Below, one piece after another: positions 589-7,411 of a DNA stretch of 7,547 nucleotides. The DNA is from Candidatus Diapherotrites archaeon CG08_land_8_20_14_0_20_30_16 (GTDB lineage: Archaea > Iainarchaeota > Iainarchaeia > Iainarchaeales > 0-14-0-20-30-16): assembly GCA_002779075.1 (NCBI GenBank), contig PEXK01000025.1, positions 1-7,547 of the forward strand. Direction: 5' to 3'. The notes below the pieces were generated by a model. It had not been told where the DNA came from. It saw only the letters and a program-made list of their open reading frames with translations, and did not search any database. Within the stretch, counting starts at the first letter, position 1. Each line of letters starts with the position of its first letter. Position numbers and translations under genes: made by a program.

Positions 589-598
589 TTTATATATA
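589..598 (+). promoter_or_regulatory. TATA-box-like element upstream of the CooS-like gene (possible leaderless transcript)
   Basis: 'TTTATATATA' begins 28 nt upstream of the ATG at 617. The 18 nt before the ATG (gtattcttatttctatt) carry no purine-rich SD. This geometry fits an archaeal TATA box at about -26 with the transcript starting at or near the start codon. TATA-like strings are common in DNA this AT-rich, so confidence is low. Confidence 0.3.
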
Positions 599-616: not shown

Positions 617-2155
617 ATGCCTAACGATTTTGTACCAATATCAGAAAGATTGAAACTTTTGCCTTGTCCAATTGGTGAAAAAGGTTTTTGTTGTAAGATC
701 TGTTTAATGGGTCCTTGTAGAGTAATGACTAGTGAGCAAAAAGGGGTTTGTGGCGCATCTCAAGATCTAATTGTTGCAAGAAATATTTTAAGATTTACTG
801 CTGGTGGTGCTAGTGCACATTGTGGTCACACATATCACTTATTAAATCATTTTGGAGAGACATTCACTGACAATTATATTAAGGAAAAAAGCCCTGATTA
901 TTTGTACAAACTTTGGGATGATTTGAACATATTACCCAAAGTTAAAATGGAGCATTTTAAAGATATTTCTGAGGCCTTGCACACTTCAACAATGGGAACA
1001 AATTCAGATTATACTGATGTTTTGAAATGGTGTATGAAATTAGGAATTATTGATGGTTATTATGGCTTGTATTTTGCAACAGAATTAGAAGATAAACATT
1101 ATGGCAAACCAGAAATAAAGAAAGGGAAATTAAATTTAGGGGTACTGAATCCTGATAAAGTGAATATTGCAATTCACGGCCACGAGCCAATGTTTGCCCA
1201 AGCTATTGTAAAAGAAGCAAAAAATTACCCAGAAGTAAATCTAGTTGGGGTTTGTTGTACTGGTGCATCTTTGTTAGCAAGGCAGGGAGTTCCTTTGGCT
1301 GCACACTTTATGTTGCAAGAAGATGTTGTTGCTTCTGGTATTGTTGATATTTTAGTGGTAGATACTCAATGTATAATGCCTTCTTTGAAAGATCTGTGTG
1401 AGTGCTATCACACAAAAATAGTTACAACAAGTGAAATTGCAAGAATTGAAAATGCCTTACACATGCCTGTTAGAAACGAAGATGATGCAAAAAGAATTGC
1501 ACAAACAGTAATTAAAATGGCAATAGGAAATAAACTATACAGAAGGAAGAATGCAGAGCAATTATTCAAACAGAAACATCCTCAAATTAAAGAGGTAACT
1601 GTTGGCTTTACAGAAGATAACATCAATATTGATGATATTGCAAGAAAATTAAGCAAAAAAGAGATAAAAGGCATTATTGGTGTTGTTGGTTGTGTTAATC
1701 CAAGAGCAAATCAAAACTGGGTAAAGACTTTTGAGAAACTAAGTAAAGATTATTTAATTCTGTGCTCGGGTTGCATGGCTTTTGAATTTGGCAAAAATAG
1801 TTTGTTAGATGGAAAAAGATTTTATCATATGGGTTCATGTGTGAATAATGCAAGAATTGCGGAAGTGTTCAAAAGGTTGGCACAGAAACTAAATAAACAA
1901 ATAACTGAATTGCCTTTTTTGATTTCTTGTCCAATGCCAATTTCTGAAAAAGCAGTAGCTATTGGCTTCTTTTTCGCAGCAATAGGTGTTGATGTACATT
2001 TTGGTTATCCTTTTTTGATAAGTTCTGATACTAATGTTGCTAATTTCCTTGCTAACACTTTACGTGTAAAATTTAACAGTGTAATTTTTGTTGATACAGA
2101 CCCAAATACTTTTTATGATAAAGTAAAAGATGGTTTAATTGTTATTCCTAGGTGA
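617..2155 (+). CDS. cooS: Shortened anaerobic Ni,Fe carbon-monoxide dehydrogenase catalytic-subunit homologue (CooS / prismane family, 'mini-CooS'-like)
   Basis: 512-aa ORF. The N-terminal cysteine pattern is C17-x7-C25C26-x2-C29-x4-C34-x10-C45 ('CPIGEKGFCCKICLMGPCRV...GVCGA'), followed by 'IVARNILR' and 'GGASAHCGH'. Later blocks are 'IAIHGHEP' (H187/H189), 'VGVCCTGA' (C213/C214), 'VDTQCIMP' (C252), 'VGCVNPR' (C359), 'SGCMA' (C386), 'MGSCVNNAR' (C408) and 'PISEKAVAIG' (K445). These are the CooS signature blocks that carry the D-, B- and C-cluster ligands. TGA stop at 2153-2155. Confidence 0.85.
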   Translation: MPNDFVPISERLKLLPCPIGEKGFCCKICLMGPCRVMTSEQKGVCGASQDLIVARNILRFTAGGASAHCGHTYHLLNHFGETFTDNYIKEKSPDYLYKLWDDLNILPKVKMEHFKDISEALHTSTMGTNSDYTDVLKWCMKLGIIDGYYGLYFATELEDKHYGKPEIKKGKLNLGVLNPDKVNIAIHGHEPMFAQAIVKEAKNYPEVNLVGVCCTGASLLARQGVPLAAHFMLQEDVVASGIVDILVVDTQCIMPSLKDLCECYHTKIVTTSEIARIENALHMPVRNEDDAKRIAQTVIKMAIGNKLYRRKNAEQLFKQKHPQIKEVTVGFTEDNINIDDIARKLSKKEIKGIIGVVGCVNPRANQNWVKTFEKLSKDYLILCSGCMAFEFGKNSLLDGKRFYHMGSCVNNARIAEVFKRLAQKLNKQITELPFLISCPMPISEKAVAIGFFFAAIGVDVHFGYPFLISSDTNVANFLANTLRVKFNSVIFVDTDPNTFYDKVKDGLIVIPR

Positions 2156-2159
2156 TGTT

Positions 2160-2693
2160 ATGAGAGTATTATTTATAATTGCATTTAGAGATTTTCAAGA
2201 TGTGGAGTTTCTTAAAACAAAAGAGATTCTAGAGCAAAACAATATAGAGTGTGATGTTGCAAGCACACAGAAAGGAATTGCAAAAGGATCTTTTGGTGCT
2301 GAATTTAAAGTATCAAAAATATTGGAAGAGATTAGCCCTCAAGATTATGATTGTGTAATATTTATTGGTGGTGCAGGCACTCCTAGTGTAAGAGCAAAAA
2401 GAGATGCAATAAGAATTGCAGAGCAATCCTACAAATTGGGCAAGTTGACTTGTGCAATATGTTGGGCACCAACTATTTTAGCAAAAGCAGGCATCCTCAA
2501 AAACAAAAAAGCAACAGTTTGGGTAGGCTCCGATAATGAGTATCAAAAAAGCACAAAGGAAGTTCTTGAGCAGTATGGTGCAGACTTTGTTGATAAAGAA
2601 TTAGTTGTTGATGGAAATTTAATTACAGCAAATGGGCCACCAAGTGCTGAAAAGTTTGCAAAAGAAATCATCAAATTTTTAGGAAAAAAATAA
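2160..2693 (+). CDS. DJ-1/PfpI family protein (class-I glutamine amidotransferase-like fold)
   Basis: 'MRVLFIIAFRDFQDVEF...DYDCVIFIGGAG...LTCAICWAPTILAKAGILKNKKATVW...VVDGNLITANGP' matches the DJ-1/PfpI layout, with the nucleophile-elbow Cys in 'AICWAP'. I prefer the ATG at 2160 over the TTG at 2139 used by the ORF track. GGTGAT (2151-2156) lies 3 nt upstream of that ATG, which sits 4 nt after the CooS stop. Confidence 0.85.
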   Translation: MRVLFIIAFRDFQDVEFLKTKEILEQNNIECDVASTQKGIAKGSFGAEFKVSKILEEISPQDYDCVIFIGGAGTPSVRAKRDAIRIAEQSYKLGKLTCAICWAPTILAKAGILKNKKATVWVGSDNEYQKSTKEVLEQYGADFVDKELVVDGNLITANGPPSAEKFAKEIIKFLGKK

Positions 2694-2695: not shown

Positions 2696-3994
2696 TTATT
2701 TTAATTCTTTTATAATTTCTTTTGTTGTCAGGTTATTTGTTTTTCCACTTTGCATATCTTTTAAACCAAATACTTCTGATTCAATTTCTTTTTTGCCAAC
2801 AACAATTACAAAAGGGATTTTTTCTTTGTTTGCATAATCTAATGCTTTGCTTAATTTATCTTCAAATGCAATACTTGAACTGATGTTATTTTTGCGCAAT
2901 TCTGTTGCTAACTCAATGCAAGGCTCTAATTTATCTAATGGAATTATCAATACTTTTGGAGTTCTTTCAAACCCCGTCAGTTTGGTTTTGTTTTCTAATA
3001 ATGCATTATATATTATATCTAATCCAAATGACATTCCTGTTGCAGGATATTCTCTATCGCTTTGCAAAAAACCCTGTATTATTTTGTCCCAACGACCACC
3101 ACCACCAACACTAGAAGTTATTTTACTATTTTCTAAATATACTTCCCACATTGGGCCAGTATAATAACTTAAACCTCTTGACAATGTTGGTGTAAAATAA
3201 ACATCTTTTATATTTTGTAGTTTTAGACAATCAAAAATTAGTAATAATTCGTTGTAGCCTTCATCAAATAAATTATTTCCACATTTGCTTTTTAAAAATT
3301 CTAGTTTCTTAAAATTATCTTTAATATCTTTTTGTCCTGCTAATAAATCAAACAAGGCATCAATACTTTGCTCTTTAATTCCTTTTTCTCTTAATTCTTT
3401 TTCAACATCTTTCTGGCAGGTTTTTTCTAATTTATCTAAAGATAAAGCAACATTAATAAAATCTTTTTCTTTTACATTGCAGGTTTCAAATAAGCCAAAT
3501 AAAAGTTTTCTATTATTAATTACAACATAAACAGGTAATTGAAGGTCTTTAAAAACATCAAAAATCAACGCAATTATTTCTGCATCTTGTGCAGGACTCT
3601 TTATTCCTGCAACATCAACATCACATTGAGTAAATTCTCTTAATCTTCCACTTTTTACTGGTCCGTCTCTAAATACCTTTCCTATTTCATATCTCTTTAG
3701 AGGCAGTCTTAGAGTTGGGTTTTCAGCAATTAGTTTTGCCATTTTGAATGTCAGTTCATACCTTAAGCACAATTTTCTTTTGCCTTGATCTGTTAGCTGA
3801 TAAGTTTCTTTTAATATTTCTTCGCCGCCAGCATATTTGCTTGCTGCAATTTCATAAGCTTCCAATATGCTTGTCTCAATAGGTCTAAAGCCGTATTTCT
3901 TGAAATTCTTTTTCAATACATCCAGAATATACTCTCTGATTTCTTGTTCTTCTGGCAAATACTCTTTAATCCCTTTTAATTGTTCTAATTCCAT
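2696..3994 (-). CDS. hisS: Histidyl-tRNA synthetase, archaeal/eukaryal-like type
   Basis: Class II HisRS blocks are present: 'KGIKEYLPEE', 'LCLRYELTFKMAKLIA', 'PLKRYEIGKVFRDGPVKSGRLREFTQCDVDVAG' (motif 2), 'GGGGRWDKII' (HisB-like GGGRxD), 'ATGMSFGLDIIY' (motif 3) and a C-terminal anticodon-binding domain ('KVLIIPLD...IPFVIVVGKKE'). I take the ATG at 3994 ('MELEQLKG...'), which has GTGAG 3 nt upstream. The track's TTG at 4027 would add a junk-like 'MCCLVCKLCER'. Confidence 0.95.
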   Translation of the reverse strand: MELEQLKGIKEYLPEEQEIREYILDVLKKNFKKYGFRPIETSILEAYEIAASKYAGGEEILKETYQLTDQGKRKLCLRYELTFKMAKLIAENPTLRLPLKRYEIGKVFRDGPVKSGRLREFTQCDVDVAGIKSPAQDAEIIALIFDVFKDLQLPVYVVINNRKLLFGLFETCNVKEKDFINVALSLDKLEKTCQKDVEKELREKGIKEQSIDALFDLLAGQKDIKDNFKKLEFLKSKCGNNLFDEGYNELLLIFDCLKLQNIKDVYFTPTLSRGLSYYTGPMWEVYLENSKITSSVGGGGRWDKIIQGFLQSDREYPATGMSFGLDIIYNALLENKTKLTGFERTPKVLIIPLDKLEPCIELATELRKNNISSSIAFEDKLSKALDYANKEKIPFVIVVGKKEIESEVFGLKDMQSGKTNNLTTKEIIKELK

Positions 3995-4121
3995 TCTCTC
4001 ACACAATTTACACACTAGACAGCACAATTTATATATTGTTATTTATATTATAACTATAAATATATTGGCAATCCCACTATATAAATATAGCTTAAAACAG
4101 TATTACTTTTTAGCAAAAAGA

Positions 4122-4130
4122 TTTATTAAA
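4122..4130 (+). promoter_or_regulatory. TATA-box-like element upstream of rpiB (possible leaderless transcript)
   Basis: 'TTTATTAAA', preceded by the purine-rich 'GCAAAAAG', is centred about 23 nt upstream of the rpiB ATG (4149). There is no SD in the intervening 'cttaacagttatcttatt'. It lies in the 154-bp divergent hisS/rpiB intergenic region. Specificity is low in AT-rich DNA. Confidence 0.3.
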
Positions 4131-4148
4131 CTTAACAGTTATCTTATT

Positions 4149-4577
4149 ATGACAATTTATATTGCTAGTGACCATGGTGGTTTTAAACTTAAAGAGAAGA
4201 TAAAAAACCATTTAGTTAAAAAAGGATTTGAAATCAAAGATTTTGGAACACATTCTGAAGACTCTGTAGATTATCCTATTTTTGCAAAGAAAGTATCAAA
4301 TGCAGTTACAAAAGATAGTAATTCAAAAGGGATCTTGGTGTGTGGCACAGGTATTGGAATGAGTATTGCTGCAAACAAAATAAAAGGTATAAGAGCAGCA
4401 TTGTGTTGGAACGAAGAAACAGCTAGACTTTCTAGAGAACACAATGATACAAATGTTTTGTGTTTTGGGCAAAGGATATTGGGTGAGGATCTTGTATTAA
4501 AGATTGTAGATGTTTGGCTTAATACAAAATTCACAAATGAAGAAAGACACATTAGAAGACTAGATATGTTGGATTGA
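4149..4577 (+). CDS. rpiB: Ribose-5-phosphate isomerase B (RpiB/LacAB family)
   Basis: 'MTIYIASDHGGFKLKEKI...VDYPIFAKKV...GILVCGTGIGMSIAANKIKGIRAAL...REHNDTNVLCFGQRILG...ERHIRRL' is a near-textbook RpiB of 142 aa, with the catalytic Cys in 'CGTGIG'. The track ORF (3867..) is an unlikely upstream extension through the hisS 5' end and the intergenic region. Confidence 0.93.
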   Translation: MTIYIASDHGGFKLKEKIKNHLVKKGFEIKDFGTHSEDSVDYPIFAKKVSNAVTKDSNSKGILVCGTGIGMSIAANKIKGIRAALCWNEETARLSREHNDTNVLCFGQRILGEDLVLKIVDVWLNTKFTNEERHIRRLDMLD

Positions 4578-5482: not shown

Positions 5483-5965
5483 TTAAAAAAAAGTAACTAG
5501 AAAAATAAATTGTTCAGTATATTGTTTGTATTTTTGCAAATTTCTTCTTAACAACAATAAAAATTGCCTAGGTTCACCTTTAGGATCATATAAAAGACTA
5601 AGAAGACTATCAAATAATATTCTGTTTTTGGTTTTAGCTGTGCACTCAGAGATAATATGTTCATCTTCGTTTATATACTCCTTTATATCTTGCTTTATTG
5701 TCCAATCCAGTTTTTCGTGGCTCAGCCTATCTTCTTGTATTCTTAGAGATTTTGTTGCATTTACAAATCGTTCAACTAATCTTAATTCAGGAATCAAATG
5801 AATTGCAACTATTGAAGGAGTAACTTTGTATTTCTGAAAAATTGCATGAACTAATGCTAATCTTCCAGCTTCATGACCCATTTCTAATACTTCTGGAGAA
5901 GCTGGTTTTAATTTTCTTCTTCTAAGTAGTTCAAGTTGTTTAGGTCCTTTTTTAGCACTAGCCAT
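5483..5965 (-). CDS. Hypothetical protein, 160 aa, no family recognised
   Basis: The composition is protein-like ('MASAKKGPKQLELLRRRKLKPASPEVLEMGHEAGRLALVHAIFQKYK...'), unlike its Ser/Leu/Phe/Cys-rich antisense partner at 5526-5801. I take the ATG at 5965, with GTGAT 4 nt upstream. The track's GTG at 5974 is that SD-like element itself. The N-terminus is basic, and the tail 'FIFLVTFF*' runs into a T8 homopolymer. Confidence 0.6.
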   Translation of the reverse strand: MASAKKGPKQLELLRRRKLKPASPEVLEMGHEAGRLALVHAIFQKYKVTPSIVAIHLIPELRLVERFVNATKSLRIQEDRLSHEKLDWTIKQDIKEYINEDEHIISECTAKTKNRILFDSLLSLLYDPKGEPRQFLLLLRRNLQKYKQYTEQFIFLVTFF

Positions 5966-5975
5966 AAATATCACT
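5963..5975 (-). repeat. Copy 1 of a 13-nt direct repeat AGTGATATTTATG (SD-like element plus start codon of the orphan gene)
   Basis: Plus-strand 'cataaatatcact' at 5963-5975 is identical to 6038-6050. Confidence 0.6.
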
Positions 5976-5983
5976 TCAATTAT

Positions 5984-6040
5984 TTATGGAAAGTGTTGTA
6001 TAATTTCTATCATCTTAGAAGAAATTATTAACTGAGTCAT
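5984..6040 (-). CDS. Candidate 18-codon upstream ORF / leader peptide
   Basis: The minus strand reads AGTGATATTTATG ACT CAG TTA ATA ATT TCT TCT AAG ATG ATA GAA ATT ATA CAA CAC TTT CCA TAA, giving MTQLIISSKMIEIIQHFP*. It uses the second copy of the same SD-plus-ATG cassette and ends 18 nt before the orphan gene's ATG. It is too short to call on sequence alone. Confidence 0.2.
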   Translation of the reverse strand: MTQLIISSKMIEIIQHFP

Positions 6041-6050
6041 AAATATCACT
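6038..6050 (-). repeat. Copy 2 of the 13-nt direct repeat AGTGATATTTATG
   Basis: Identical to 5963-5975, 75 nt away in the same orientation. Confidence 0.6.
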
Positions 6051-6101
6051 AAATAAATGTACATAGAATACATTTATATTATTATTTTTTATATTTCTTC
6101 A

Positions 6102-6350
6102 ATGCAAAACAAGACAAATCAAGTTTTAAAGCTTTTATTAAAGATTCCAAAAGGCAAAATAACACCTATGGTATTATAGCAAAAAAAAATGAATATAAGC
6201 CCAGGCAAGTAGGAAAAATATTGAAAGAAAATAAGATTACAGATATACTTGCTATAAAGCAATAAAAAACAATGCGAATTAGGAGGCTATAATAGAGAAT
6301 TAAAGAAGAAAATAGAGCATTTAAAAAAAGGGGATTAAACATAAGAAATA
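6102..6350 (+). pseudogene. Degraded MGMT / alkyltransferase-like (O6-methylguanine-DNA methyltransferase DNA-binding domain) gene with multiple frameshifts
   Basis: Homology can be followed only by hopping frames. Frame 0 from ATG 6102 gives 'MQNKTNQVLKLLLKIPKGKITPMVL*'. Frame 2 from 6164 gives 'TYGIIAKKNEYKPRQVGKILKENKITDILAIKQ*'. Frame 1 from 6250 gives 'CYKAIKNNAN*'. Frame 0 from 6279 gives 'LGGYNRELKKKIEHLKKGD*'. Joined, these mimic the MGMT C-terminal domain consensus: (K)IP-G-(K)-T-TYG-IA...PR-VG-L-N...PCHRV...G-LGGY...K..LL..EG. There are at least three frame changes, one next to an A9 run (6180-6189). Confidence 0.55.
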
Positions 6351-6445
6351 ATAAAAATATTAACTTTATGCTGTATTTATGGTATTATTAATTATAGATT
6401 TATATATTATAGTTTTCTTATATATTAAAAGAAAAAGGTGGTTTT

Positions 6446-7057: not shown

Positions 7058-7411
7058 ATGTCAGAGAAGTCAATGCCTATAATTAGAAATAAAGAAGATC
7101 TTACTTTATTAAACAAAATTAAAAGTATTATTCACAAAGCACGATATGTTGCTTTTAATGCTGTAAATACAGAAATGCTTAAAGCATATTATGAGATTGG
7201 AAAAAGGATAGTTGAAGAAGAACAAAAAGGTAAAAAACGAGCAGAATATGGCAAAAAACTTCTTGAGACACTTTCAGTTGAACTTATAATGGAATTTGGG
7301 AGTGGTTTTAGTGTTACTATCCTTAAAAATATGAGGTTTTTTTATCAAATCTATAAAGATAGAATAAGTCAGTCAGCGACTGACTGTTATACCGTTTCAT
7401 TAAGAAATTAG
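7058..7411 (+). CDS. DUF1016/YhcG-family protein, N-terminal domain only (PD-(D/E)XK nuclease domain missing)
   Basis: 'ARYVAFNAVNTEMLKAYYEIGKRIVEEEQKGKKRAEYGKKLLETLSVELIMEFGSGFSVTILKNMRFFYQIYKD' matches the conserved N-terminal helical domain of YhcG-like proteins (N..l...Yw.iG..I...q....rAeYG..ll..Ls..L...fG.Gfs..nL..Mr.FY..Y). Full-length members are, from memory, about 340-370 aa. This ORF stops at 117 aa (TAG 7409-7411), before the expected 'SWSH' block. GTGAT (7048-7052) lies 5 nt before the ATG, which is 6 nt after the FKBP stop. Confidence 0.75.
   Translation: MSEKSMPIIRNKEDLTLLNKIKSIIHKARYVAFNAVNTEMLKAYYEIGKRIVEEEQKGKKRAEYGKKLLETLSVELIMEFGSGFSVTILKNMRFFYQIYKDRISQSATDCYTVSLRN
7370..7386. 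repeat. GC-rich perfect hairpin CAGTCAG-cga-CTGACTG at the point where DUF1016 homology ends
   Basis: It has a 7-bp stem (7370-7376 / 7380-7386) and a 3-nt loop. It is embedded in AGTCAGTCAG..ACTGACTG, i.e. tandem AGTC units facing tandem GACT units. It stands out in DNA that is otherwise about 30% GC. Confidence 0.4.

Follow-up and report, generated by a model that had tools for sequence, protein, structure and literature searches.

A shortened form of CooS, the catalytic subunit of the anaerobic Ni,Fe carbon monoxide dehydrogenases (CODHs), was described as a single 'mini-CooS' from Thermosinus carboxydivorans (WP_007288589.1, given as 482 or 428 aa), which keeps all cluster ligands, adjoins cooF and is phylogenetically isolated (Techtmann 2012, PMC3328121). 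That protein is biochemically uncharacterised and was placed in clade G (Inoue 2022); in the tree, mini-CooS and clade G diverge between clade A and the rest of CooS. In the earlier survey of Inoue 2019 (PMC6344411), clades E and F combine a complete active site with a CODH-II-like C-x7-C D-cluster, clade G-1 has Tyr and Thr in place of His/Cys together with a type III D-cluster, and the sole Pacearchaeota entry is a 732-aa clade F enzyme. Our literature searches on DPANN, Pacearchaeota and Woesearchaeota with CooS or CODH returned passing mentions at most. Here we analyse a short cooS gene in a 7,547-nt stretch of contig PEXK01000025.1 (the whole stretch is called the window below). We hold with moderate confidence, from its sequence, its conservation and its predicted fold, that its 512-aa product is a functional, homodimeric, ferredoxin-linked and size-reduced CooS-type Ni,Fe-CODH of a DPANN archaeon, which may act as a CO scavenger.

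617..2155, + strand: short CooS-type Ni,Fe-CODH gene, recognised by PF03063, TIGR01702, PDB CODH matches, an AlphaFold2 model and Foldseek

The open reading frame (ORF) is ATG-initiated, and its length of 512 aa, which a first-pass annotation of this DNA had set against ~630 aa for canonical CooS, is borne out. The sole Pfam family found was PF03063 (Prismane/CODH), at 351.9 bits and E = 7.5e-105, well past the gathering cutoff of 27 bits, and the best NCBIfam model was TIGR01702 (anaerobic CODH catalytic subunit), at 325.7 bits and E = 4.6e-97. Models of related families fell short of their cutoffs: CdhA, the ACDS alpha subunit (TIGR00314), reached 86.8 bits vs. 781, and the Hcp/hydroxylamine reductase models (TIGR01703, NF003658) ~44 bits vs. 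361–367. In a HMMER search of the PDB, the 36 top-scoring distinct sequences were all CooS-type CODHs, with E-values of 3.3e-85 for CODH-IV (6elq), 2.2e-81 for the Thermococcus AM4 CODH (6t7j), 2.8e-78 for D. vulgaris CooS and ~1e-64 for CODH-II. The Hcp-like CODH-V (7b7q) followed at 6e-32 (114 bits, vs. 220–290 bits for true CODHs), archaeal CdhA at ~1e-11 to 1e-15 and Hcp at ~1e-4 (8e-5 or poorer). By these searches the protein falls on the CooS side of PF03063 and not with Hcp; the possibility of a better Hcp fit, which the first-pass annotation had allowed for, fails on both the profile scores (44 bits vs. 326 bits for TIGR01702) and the PDB matches.

The best match in both sequence and structure is CODH-IV of C. 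hydrogenoformans, which shares the B-, C- and D-cluster ligands and the catalytic Lys and His. CODH-IV has 633 aa, however, and relative to it the query lacks ~55 residues of the N-terminal helical domain, ~30 between the Cys476 and Cys526 equivalents, and smaller segments. The second- and third-best solved relatives, the clade E CooS 6t7j (277 bits) and D. vulgaris CooS (6b6v and 6vwy; 267 bits), are likewise full length (~630 aa), unlike the query. D. vulgaris CooS differs further in having a C-x2-C D-cluster and in being CooC-dependent, according to its PDB titles, whereas the query has C-x7-C and no CooC nearby. Hcp and CooS-V (7b7q) belong to the same PF03063 superfamily, but the query retains the CODH-type and not the Hcp-type ligand set.

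Ligand columns were assigned from HMMER alignments to the solved CODHs 6elq, 6t7j and 6vwy, and conservation was counted in an alignment of the query with 119 homologue clusters (120 sequences, 48–71% identity). Equivalent residues are named in CODH-II numbering. The resulting features, all of the cooS gene, are as follows.

665..751, + strand: D-/B-cluster motif C17-x7-C25-C26-x2-C29-x4-C34-x10-C45, aligned to CCRxCxxGPCR of 6elq, 6t7j and 6vwy; C17 and C25 as D-cluster ligands (CODH-II-like spacing, 'type II' of Inoue 2019), C26, C29, C34 and C45 as B-cluster ligands
818..838, + strand: H68-x2-H71-x2-H74, aligned to AAH..DH of solved CODHs
1175..1183, + strand: H187-G-H189, with H189 as the equivalent of C-cluster ligand His261 (alignment, 120/120)
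1253..1258, + strand: C213-C214, with C214 as the equivalent of C-cluster ligand Cys295 (alignment, 120/120)
1370..1372, + strand: C252, equivalent of C-cluster ligand Cys333, in motif VDTQCIMPS (alignment, conservation)
1691..1693, + strand: C359, equivalent of C-cluster ligand Cys446, in motif VGCVNP (alignment, conservation)
1772..1774, + strand: C386, equivalent of C-cluster ligand Cys476, in motif SGC (alignment, conservation)
1838..1840, + strand: C408, equivalent of the Ni-binding C-cluster ligand Cys526, in motif MGSCVNN (alignment, conservation)
1949..1951, + strand: K445, equivalent of catalytic Lys563, in motif SEKAVAIG (alignment, invariant)

All six C-cluster ligands, the B- and D-cluster cysteine motif and the equivalents of Lys563 and His93 were thus found, and all 12 cluster ligands plus the Lys and the His sit in canonical motifs; those matched in the alignments to solved enzymes include CCxxCxxGPCR, AAHxxH, VDxQCIMPS and HMGSCVxN. 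The first-pass annotation had picked out most of these residues by eye, and each is where it was said to be: C17, C25, C26, C29, C34, C45, H187-G-H189, C213-C214-T, Q251-C252, G-C359-V-N-P, G-C386, G-S-C408-V-N-N and S-E-K445-A. Its claim that they occupy ligand columns holds in the alignments, where they meet CCxxCxxGPC, HGH, CCTG, QCIMPS, VGCxN, TGC, MGSCV(D/N)N and SEKA, and the two spacings it had found equal to the reference (38 for C214 to C252, 37 for C408 to K445) correspond to stretches that align ungapped with solved CODHs.

Conservation across the family is strict at these positions. H187, H189, C213, C214, C252, C359, C386, C408 and K445 are invariant (120/120), as are C17, C25, C26 and C29 in all 114 sequences with an intact N-terminus; in the full alignment C34, C45 and H68 are invariant save for gaps. 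The three histidines H68, H71 and H74 are conserved in 119, 118 and 111 of the 120, respectively, and I449, the Ile567 equivalent, in at least 90% of family members. Cysteines that are not ligands are freely replaced: C261 by A, V, I or S, C383 by T or A, and C438 by A. Invariant ligands alongside variable non-ligand cysteines are the signature of selection on metal binding, in agreement with the earlier suggestion that the catalytic core is under selection. As judged from these columns, the motif set of the 512-aa protein is the clade E/F pattern and not that of clade G-1.

The cluster assignments rest on alignment, and from them we infer catalytic activity, which might proceed as follows. 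The protein would form a homodimer bridged by a [4Fe-4S] D-cluster on C17 and C25 of each chain, and each chain would hold a [4Fe-4S] B-cluster on C26, C29, C34 and C45 and a [Ni-4Fe-4S] C-cluster on H189, C214, C252, C359, C386 and C408. Such a dimer draws indirect support from C17 and C25 being conserved. At the C-cluster the reaction CO + H2O <-> CO2 + 2H+ + 2e- would take place, with K445 and H68 serving in acid-base catalysis and H68, H71 and H74 as the proton path; we take H68 to be the equivalent of the acid-base residue His93 of CODH-II and, with H71 and H74, to form the histidine path known for that enzyme. Electrons would leave from the C-cluster through B' and D to a soluble ferredoxin whose gene lies at another place in the genome. 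We picture a stand-alone enzyme that has neither CooF, hydrogenase or ACS as a partner nor CooC next to it.

The same superfamily offers a different reading, namely that the scaffold no longer handles CO but carries an Fe-only or otherwise altered cluster and serves in Hcp/CODH-V-like reduction of hydroxylamine, NO or peroxide, or in thiol-linked stress defence. There is precedent in the clade D CooS-V with its Hcp-like site (PMC6344411), cooC lies near none of the loci that we gathered (see below), and the neighbours at those loci include genes for DUF1858/TIGR03980, thioredoxin reductase, thioredoxin, glutaredoxin and rubrerythrin, and in the window DJ-1. The residues that are substituted in Hcp-like CODHs are nonetheless invariant here, including the full C-cluster set with its Ni-binding Cys526 equivalent, Lys563 and His93, and the low scores given above for the Hcp models and for CODH-V also count against this reading, which we consider improbable.

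Multiple alignment with full-length CooS shows two large gaps. Lesser gaps affect the N-terminus, the loop of the B-cluster, the segment from HGH to CCTG and the inter-domain linker.

854..874, + strand: junction of large deletion 1, where the N-terminal helical domain is ~50–55 residues shorter than in 630-aa CooS
1811..1825, + strand: junction of large deletion 2, where ~28–31 residues are gone between the Cys476 and Cys526 equivalents

At deletion 1, query residues 80–85 face residues 104–160 of CODH-IV (6elq), and the same gap is present in the family representative P0066 and in its closest outside relative P0121 (both introduced below); at deletion 2, query residues 399–403 face CODH-IV residues 489–520, in a gap common to the family and P0121. 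Counted by ligand-to-ligand spacing against CODH-II numbering, 124 residues are missing in eight places: 22 at the N-terminus, 3 in the B-cluster loop, 47 in the helical domain, 9 between HGH and CC, 6 between Cys333 and Cys446, 3 between Cys446 and Cys476, 28 between Cys476 and Cys526, and 6 at the C-terminus. The first-pass annotation had named the two large gaps, which are real, but its list was incomplete. Homologue lengths run from 437 to 565 aa, with a median of 508 (120 clusters), and by these comparisons the shortening is genuine, holds throughout the family and does not stem from the way in which motifs were matched.

An AlphaFold2 monomer model built on the family alignment has a mean pLDDT of 91.5 and a pTM of 0.92, with local pLDDT of ~91 at the junction of deletion 1 and ~94 at that of deletion 2. 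In Foldseek the model superposes on more than 50 CODH chains, covering all solved CODHs, with TM scores of 0.86–0.89 normalised to the query; the best match is CODH-IV (E = 3e-41, TM 0.89 over the query, identity ~29%). In the model, the core of the three-domain CODH fold is intact despite the deletions. This high-confidence predicted fold speaks against the idea that a reduced genome has kept the gene as a relic in decay or as a pseudo-enzyme without function, as do the intact ORFs of similar length in at least 120 clusters (48–71% identity) with every ligand invariant. The loss of ~120 residues and the want of partner genes would suit such a relic, as would the related P0121, which has the same deletions and has lost several ligands, but we regard decay as very improbable for the family itself.

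That family was delimited from the best 120 clusters at 90% identity, all of which share the short architecture, so that it comprises at least 120 clusters. Named members are mostly Candidatus Pacearchaeota, Nanoarchaeota, Woesearchaeota and unclassified 'archaeon' metagenome-assembled genomes (MAGs), joined by a single Fibrobacter and a single Elusimicrobia bin; a scan of genome contigs with the 512-aa protein alone gave two loci, and a GTDB genome match is an Aenigmatarchaeota MAG. The HisRS encoded near cooS in the window is nearest to enzymes of Woese-, Huber-, Micr- and Pacearchaeota, and the names of the CooS and HisRS homologues together agree with the archaeal host proposed at first pass, more exactly a DPANN-type one. 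At one locus (L038:11654-12556) a bacterial-type flagellin gene adjoins a family member with 53% identity to the query; this neighbour and the Fibrobacter and Elusimicrobia bins may mean that some members are bacterial; errors of binning or horizontal transfer could also lie behind them.

When 50%-identity representatives were searched exhaustively, one entry, P0066 (670 bits), stood for the entire family; after it came P0121 at 434 bits and then canonical ~630-aa CooS at no more than 277 bits, the deletions cutting each of these latter matches in three. We also built a neighbour-joining tree from 71 sequences, which recovered the family plus P0121 as monophyletic in 100 of 100 bootstraps, with its sister group not resolved; the nearest sequences outside this group are P0123 and P0125, whose best PDB matches are 6t7j (Thermococcus AM4) and 6elq (CODH-IV). 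Placement inside a full-length CooS clade, which the first-pass annotation had entertained as an outcome that would make the shortening illusory, thus fails: the family is a distinct clade of 437–565 aa. P0121 itself (659 aa, 41% identity) is the closest relative beyond the family and has all of the family deletions. It has lost ligands (C25 to S, C214 to S, Q-C252 to G-N, K445 to A) and gained a ~130-aa C-terminal tail with no Pfam match, and gives the impression of a short-CODH paralogue that has degenerated or taken on another purpose.

The trait that defines mini-CooS, a shortened CooS with all cluster ligands retained, also describes the 512-aa protein, and one could take the family as a member of the described mini-CooS/clade G lineage (Techtmann 2012, Inoue 2022) of which only the host is new. 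Lengths are similar (428 or 482 aa in Thermosinus, ~510 aa here), both keep every cluster ligand (PMC3328121), and the metagenomic clade G/H members of Inoue 2022 could include the short CODH family. Against this, the Thermosinus gene adjoins cooF and none was found at the short CODH loci; clade G branches between clade A and other CooS, and its G-1 members are substituted and carry a D-cluster of type III, while the family is of E/F type; and the nearest outside relatives, P0123 and P0125, point to the Thermococcus AM4 enzyme and CODH-IV. Moreover, no Thermosinus-named protein is among the 120 best homologues, cluster look-ups of 20 short CooS-like representatives returned no Thermosinus name, and the search of 50%-identity representatives has nothing between the family at 670 bits and P0121 at 434 bits. 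We consider it improbable that the family belongs with mini-CooS. Compared with the Thermosinus protein as it has been described, the query family is set apart as mostly archaeal (DPANN), lacking cooF, carrying E/F-type motifs and lying nearest to sequences of the CODH-IV/Thermococcus type. The indirect evidence suggests a lineage independent of the published one. Two candidates for closer comparison were rejected: P0180 (510 aa, Desulfobacteraceae), tried as a stand-in for mini-CooS, has an internal gap and a truncated C-terminus, and P0243 (499 aa, all Cys kept, His93 replaced by Tyr), tried as a clade G candidate, is a truncated 630-aa CooS of the Persephonella/Aquificae type. We do not see an enzyme of a new kind in the short CODH family. 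It is a reduced CooS of DPANN, distinct and widespread, that has gone unremarked until now.

What such a size-reduced Ni,Fe-CODH might do was approached through gene context. We gathered 74 related loci, of which 55 are non-redundant, called and clustered 772 neighbour ORFs, and took Pfam censuses of 150 immediate neighbours (213 families) and of 150 neighbours three to seven genes away (196 families). Neither the clustering nor the two censuses yielded a conserved operon partner. No CbiA, CooC, CooF, ACS or hydrogenase family occurred among the 300 neighbour proteins of the censuses, no CooC-type P-loop was found in the flanks of any of 75 loci, and a six-frame scan of the loci for ferredoxin motifs gave only scattered motifs; an adjacent canonical CODH partner (cooC, cooF, ECH, ACS or FNOR) was found neither in the window nor in the related loci. 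In this the query again differs from CODH-IV, as no CooF or FNOR-type partner adjoins its cooS.

Three minority themes did emerge. Thiol-disulfide redox genes are present in 14 of the 55 non-redundant loci, and include those for thioredoxin, two CxxC proteins with a membrane anchor, a membrane protein of the LysE clan and thioredoxin reductase, the last of these genuine by TIGR01292 (293–358 bits); glutaredoxin and rubrerythrin genes are near cooS in some loci. The second theme, in 6 of the 55, joins pyruvate:ferredoxin oxidoreductase (POR), pta and ackA, with POR at most seven genes from cooS. The third, in 4–5 of the 55, consists of Fe-S assembly genes and the TIGR03980 'prismane-associated' protein, an accessory protein known from Hcp loci that recurs beside some short-CODH family members. 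One example of the latter is a small DUF1858/TIGR03980 protein ('hybrid cluster protein-associated redox disulfide domain', 85 bits) at L005:13688-13900, and such a gene is also near cooS in L019, L047, L059 and L022.

Environmental CO/CO2 would, in our reading, be coupled to the cellular ferredoxin pool, a role that we put forward less firmly than the cluster assignments. Its most likely use would be as a CODH-IV-like CO scavenger that feeds low-potential electrons to thioredoxin and peroxide-detoxifying systems: CODH-IV and the 512-aa protein are both monofunctional, with thiol-redox or oxidative-stress genes nearby in both. The DJ-1/PfpI gene that begins 4 nt past cooS in the window is in line with this use. 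In some lineages the enzyme may instead be a redox valve for POR. We infer the direction and purpose of catalysis from these minority gene associations and from the similarity to CODH-IV, and on that basis rank CO scavenging for thiol/peroxide defence first, a CO2-reducing POR sink second and, in case Ni cannot be inserted, a non-CO, Hcp-like activity third.

The second of these amounts to an enzyme that runs mainly in reverse, as a ferredoxin-oxidising CO2 reductase that takes up the electrons and CO2 released by POR, with the net reaction pyruvate + CoA -> acetyl-CoA + CO; this would be a hydrogenase-free fermentation that passes CO to the host or community. CODHs are reversible catalysts, and since the CO2/CO and pyruvate/acetyl-CoA couples are similar in potential (~-0.5 V), the reaction is feasible at low CO. 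Supporting evidence comes from three loci (L005:6776-12504, L023:2301-8077 and L054:9133-12476) where cooS lies between pta and ackA in a string that includes POR genes and whose stop and start codons overlap or adjoin; as read from these gene strings, three lineages have the CODH inside an acetate-fermentation operon. The POR linkage is nonetheless confined to a minority of loci and absent from the window, many Woesearchaeota possess hydrogenases for this purpose (PMC8421398), and no CO production by DPANN is reported in the literature that we searched. We think it unlikely that the enzyme runs mainly in this direction.

Several observations weigh against a functional, CO-scavenging Ni,Fe-CODH, the explanation that we favour. 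The TIGR01702 score of 325.7 bits is below the equivalog cutoff of 478 bits, so that the protein fails as a CooS equivalog by that model, and NCBI records label family members 'hypothetical protein' (the JGI label is CODH catalytic subunit). The shortfall fits the ~120 missing residues, since the match is broken into two stretches, and is itself the apparent cause of the NCBI names; by its scores the family appears to escape surveys based on PGAP in a systematic way. Where the canonical motif has an Asp following the Ni-binding Cys (GSCVDN), the short CODH family has an Asn. Gene context is weakly conserved, with no Pfam family in more than 3 of the 150 immediate neighbours, and the physiological role thus rests on minority associations. 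Finally, no cooC or dedicated nickel-transport gene was found in ~470 kb of flanks, and this want of a visible Ni-maturation gene is the main difficulty.

Two observations at single or few loci touch on metal supply. In L003 (L003:11528-12856, Aenigmatarchaeota MAG JAFCDY010000003.1) the gene of a 442-aa P-loop protein begins 10 nt past cooS, and its matches to metallochaperone GTPases of the CobW/HypB/UreG type are no more than marginal (Pfam E = 1.9e-4; hypB E = 7e-4). This protein, seen at the one locus only, may be a candidate for Ni insertion. Directly 3' of cooS in L018 (L018:3955-4668), and also in L022, is a ZIP-family metal transporter (PF02535, E = 2.9e-36) that could act as a metal supplier in these two loci after de-duplication.

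If active, the protein would stand as nature's minimal Ni,Fe-CODH, smaller by 20% than any of the characterised enzymes and yet with all clusters kept; it would show which parts of the scaffold can be dispensed with, which is of use in the design of catalysts for CO2 reduction and CO removal. Genome-reduced DPANN, usually called simple fermenters, would also gain a so far unrecognised CO/CO2 redox capability, and one would have to ask how Ni gets into the enzyme when CooC is missing. With its sub-cutoff TIGR01702 score, the family is probably undercounted when CO metabolism is surveyed. A broader proposition, to which we give limited credence, is that DPANN (Pace-, Woese- and Aenigmatarchaeota) widely carry this minimal ~510-aa, CooC-independent, three-cluster Ni,Fe-CODH, the smallest natural scaffold, as their main low-potential redox valve. 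Were that so, either trace CO would be scavenged to power thioredoxin or peroxide defence, or pyruvate oxidation would vent its electrons and its CO2 as CO (a 'pyruvate:CO lyase' fermentation), the latter implying that CO is passed between species, namely the ultra-small symbionts and the hosts they live with.

Within the window, the genes are those for an FkbM methyltransferase, cooS, DJ-1/PfpI, HisRS, RpiB, Rpe, an unknown ORF, FKBP and a DUF1016 fragment. Pfam searches of these ORFs agree with the methyltransferase, DJ-1 and housekeeping neighbours named in the first-pass annotation, and with its statement that cooC, cooF, acsB, cdh and hydrogenase genes are missing from the window. Two features immediately flank cooS.

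589..596, + strand: TTTATATA, archaeal TATA-box-like element ~21 nt 5' of the cooS ATG, read from the sequence
2160..2693, + strand: DJ-1/PfpI family gene (PF01965, E = 1e-39), starting 4 nt past the cooS stop

TTTATATA resembles the TATA box of archaeal promoters; this putative element suggests that cooS is transcribed from a promoter of its own, into an mRNA with a short leader or none. The DJ-1/PfpI gene, given its spacing, is probably co-transcribed with cooS; as a neighbour it is not conserved, its cluster having been seen only in the window and in duplicate contigs. The GC content of cooS (0.31–0.35) is near that of its flanks (0.28–0.33) and thus gives no sign of recent import.

Farther along, the mechanical 236-aa ORF at window 3867-4577 (+) overstates RpiB: the Pfam match begins at residue 97, gene callers, run on the identical contig, place the start at window 4149 (142 aa), and the long N-terminal extension, which overlaps hisS on the opposite strand, is an ORF-calling artefact. 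The 163-aa ORF at window 5483-5974 (-) matches nothing in Pfam or NCBIfam. After it comes a 470-bp intergenic stretch (window 5975-6445) that is very AT-rich (GC ~0.22) and without tRNA or Rfam match; scans of the window as a whole found no tRNA or Rfam family either. Near the contig end, the 117-aa ORF at window 7058-7411 (+) corresponds to only the N-terminal domain of DUF1016 (YhcG-like nuclease) and may be a truncated or fragmented gene.

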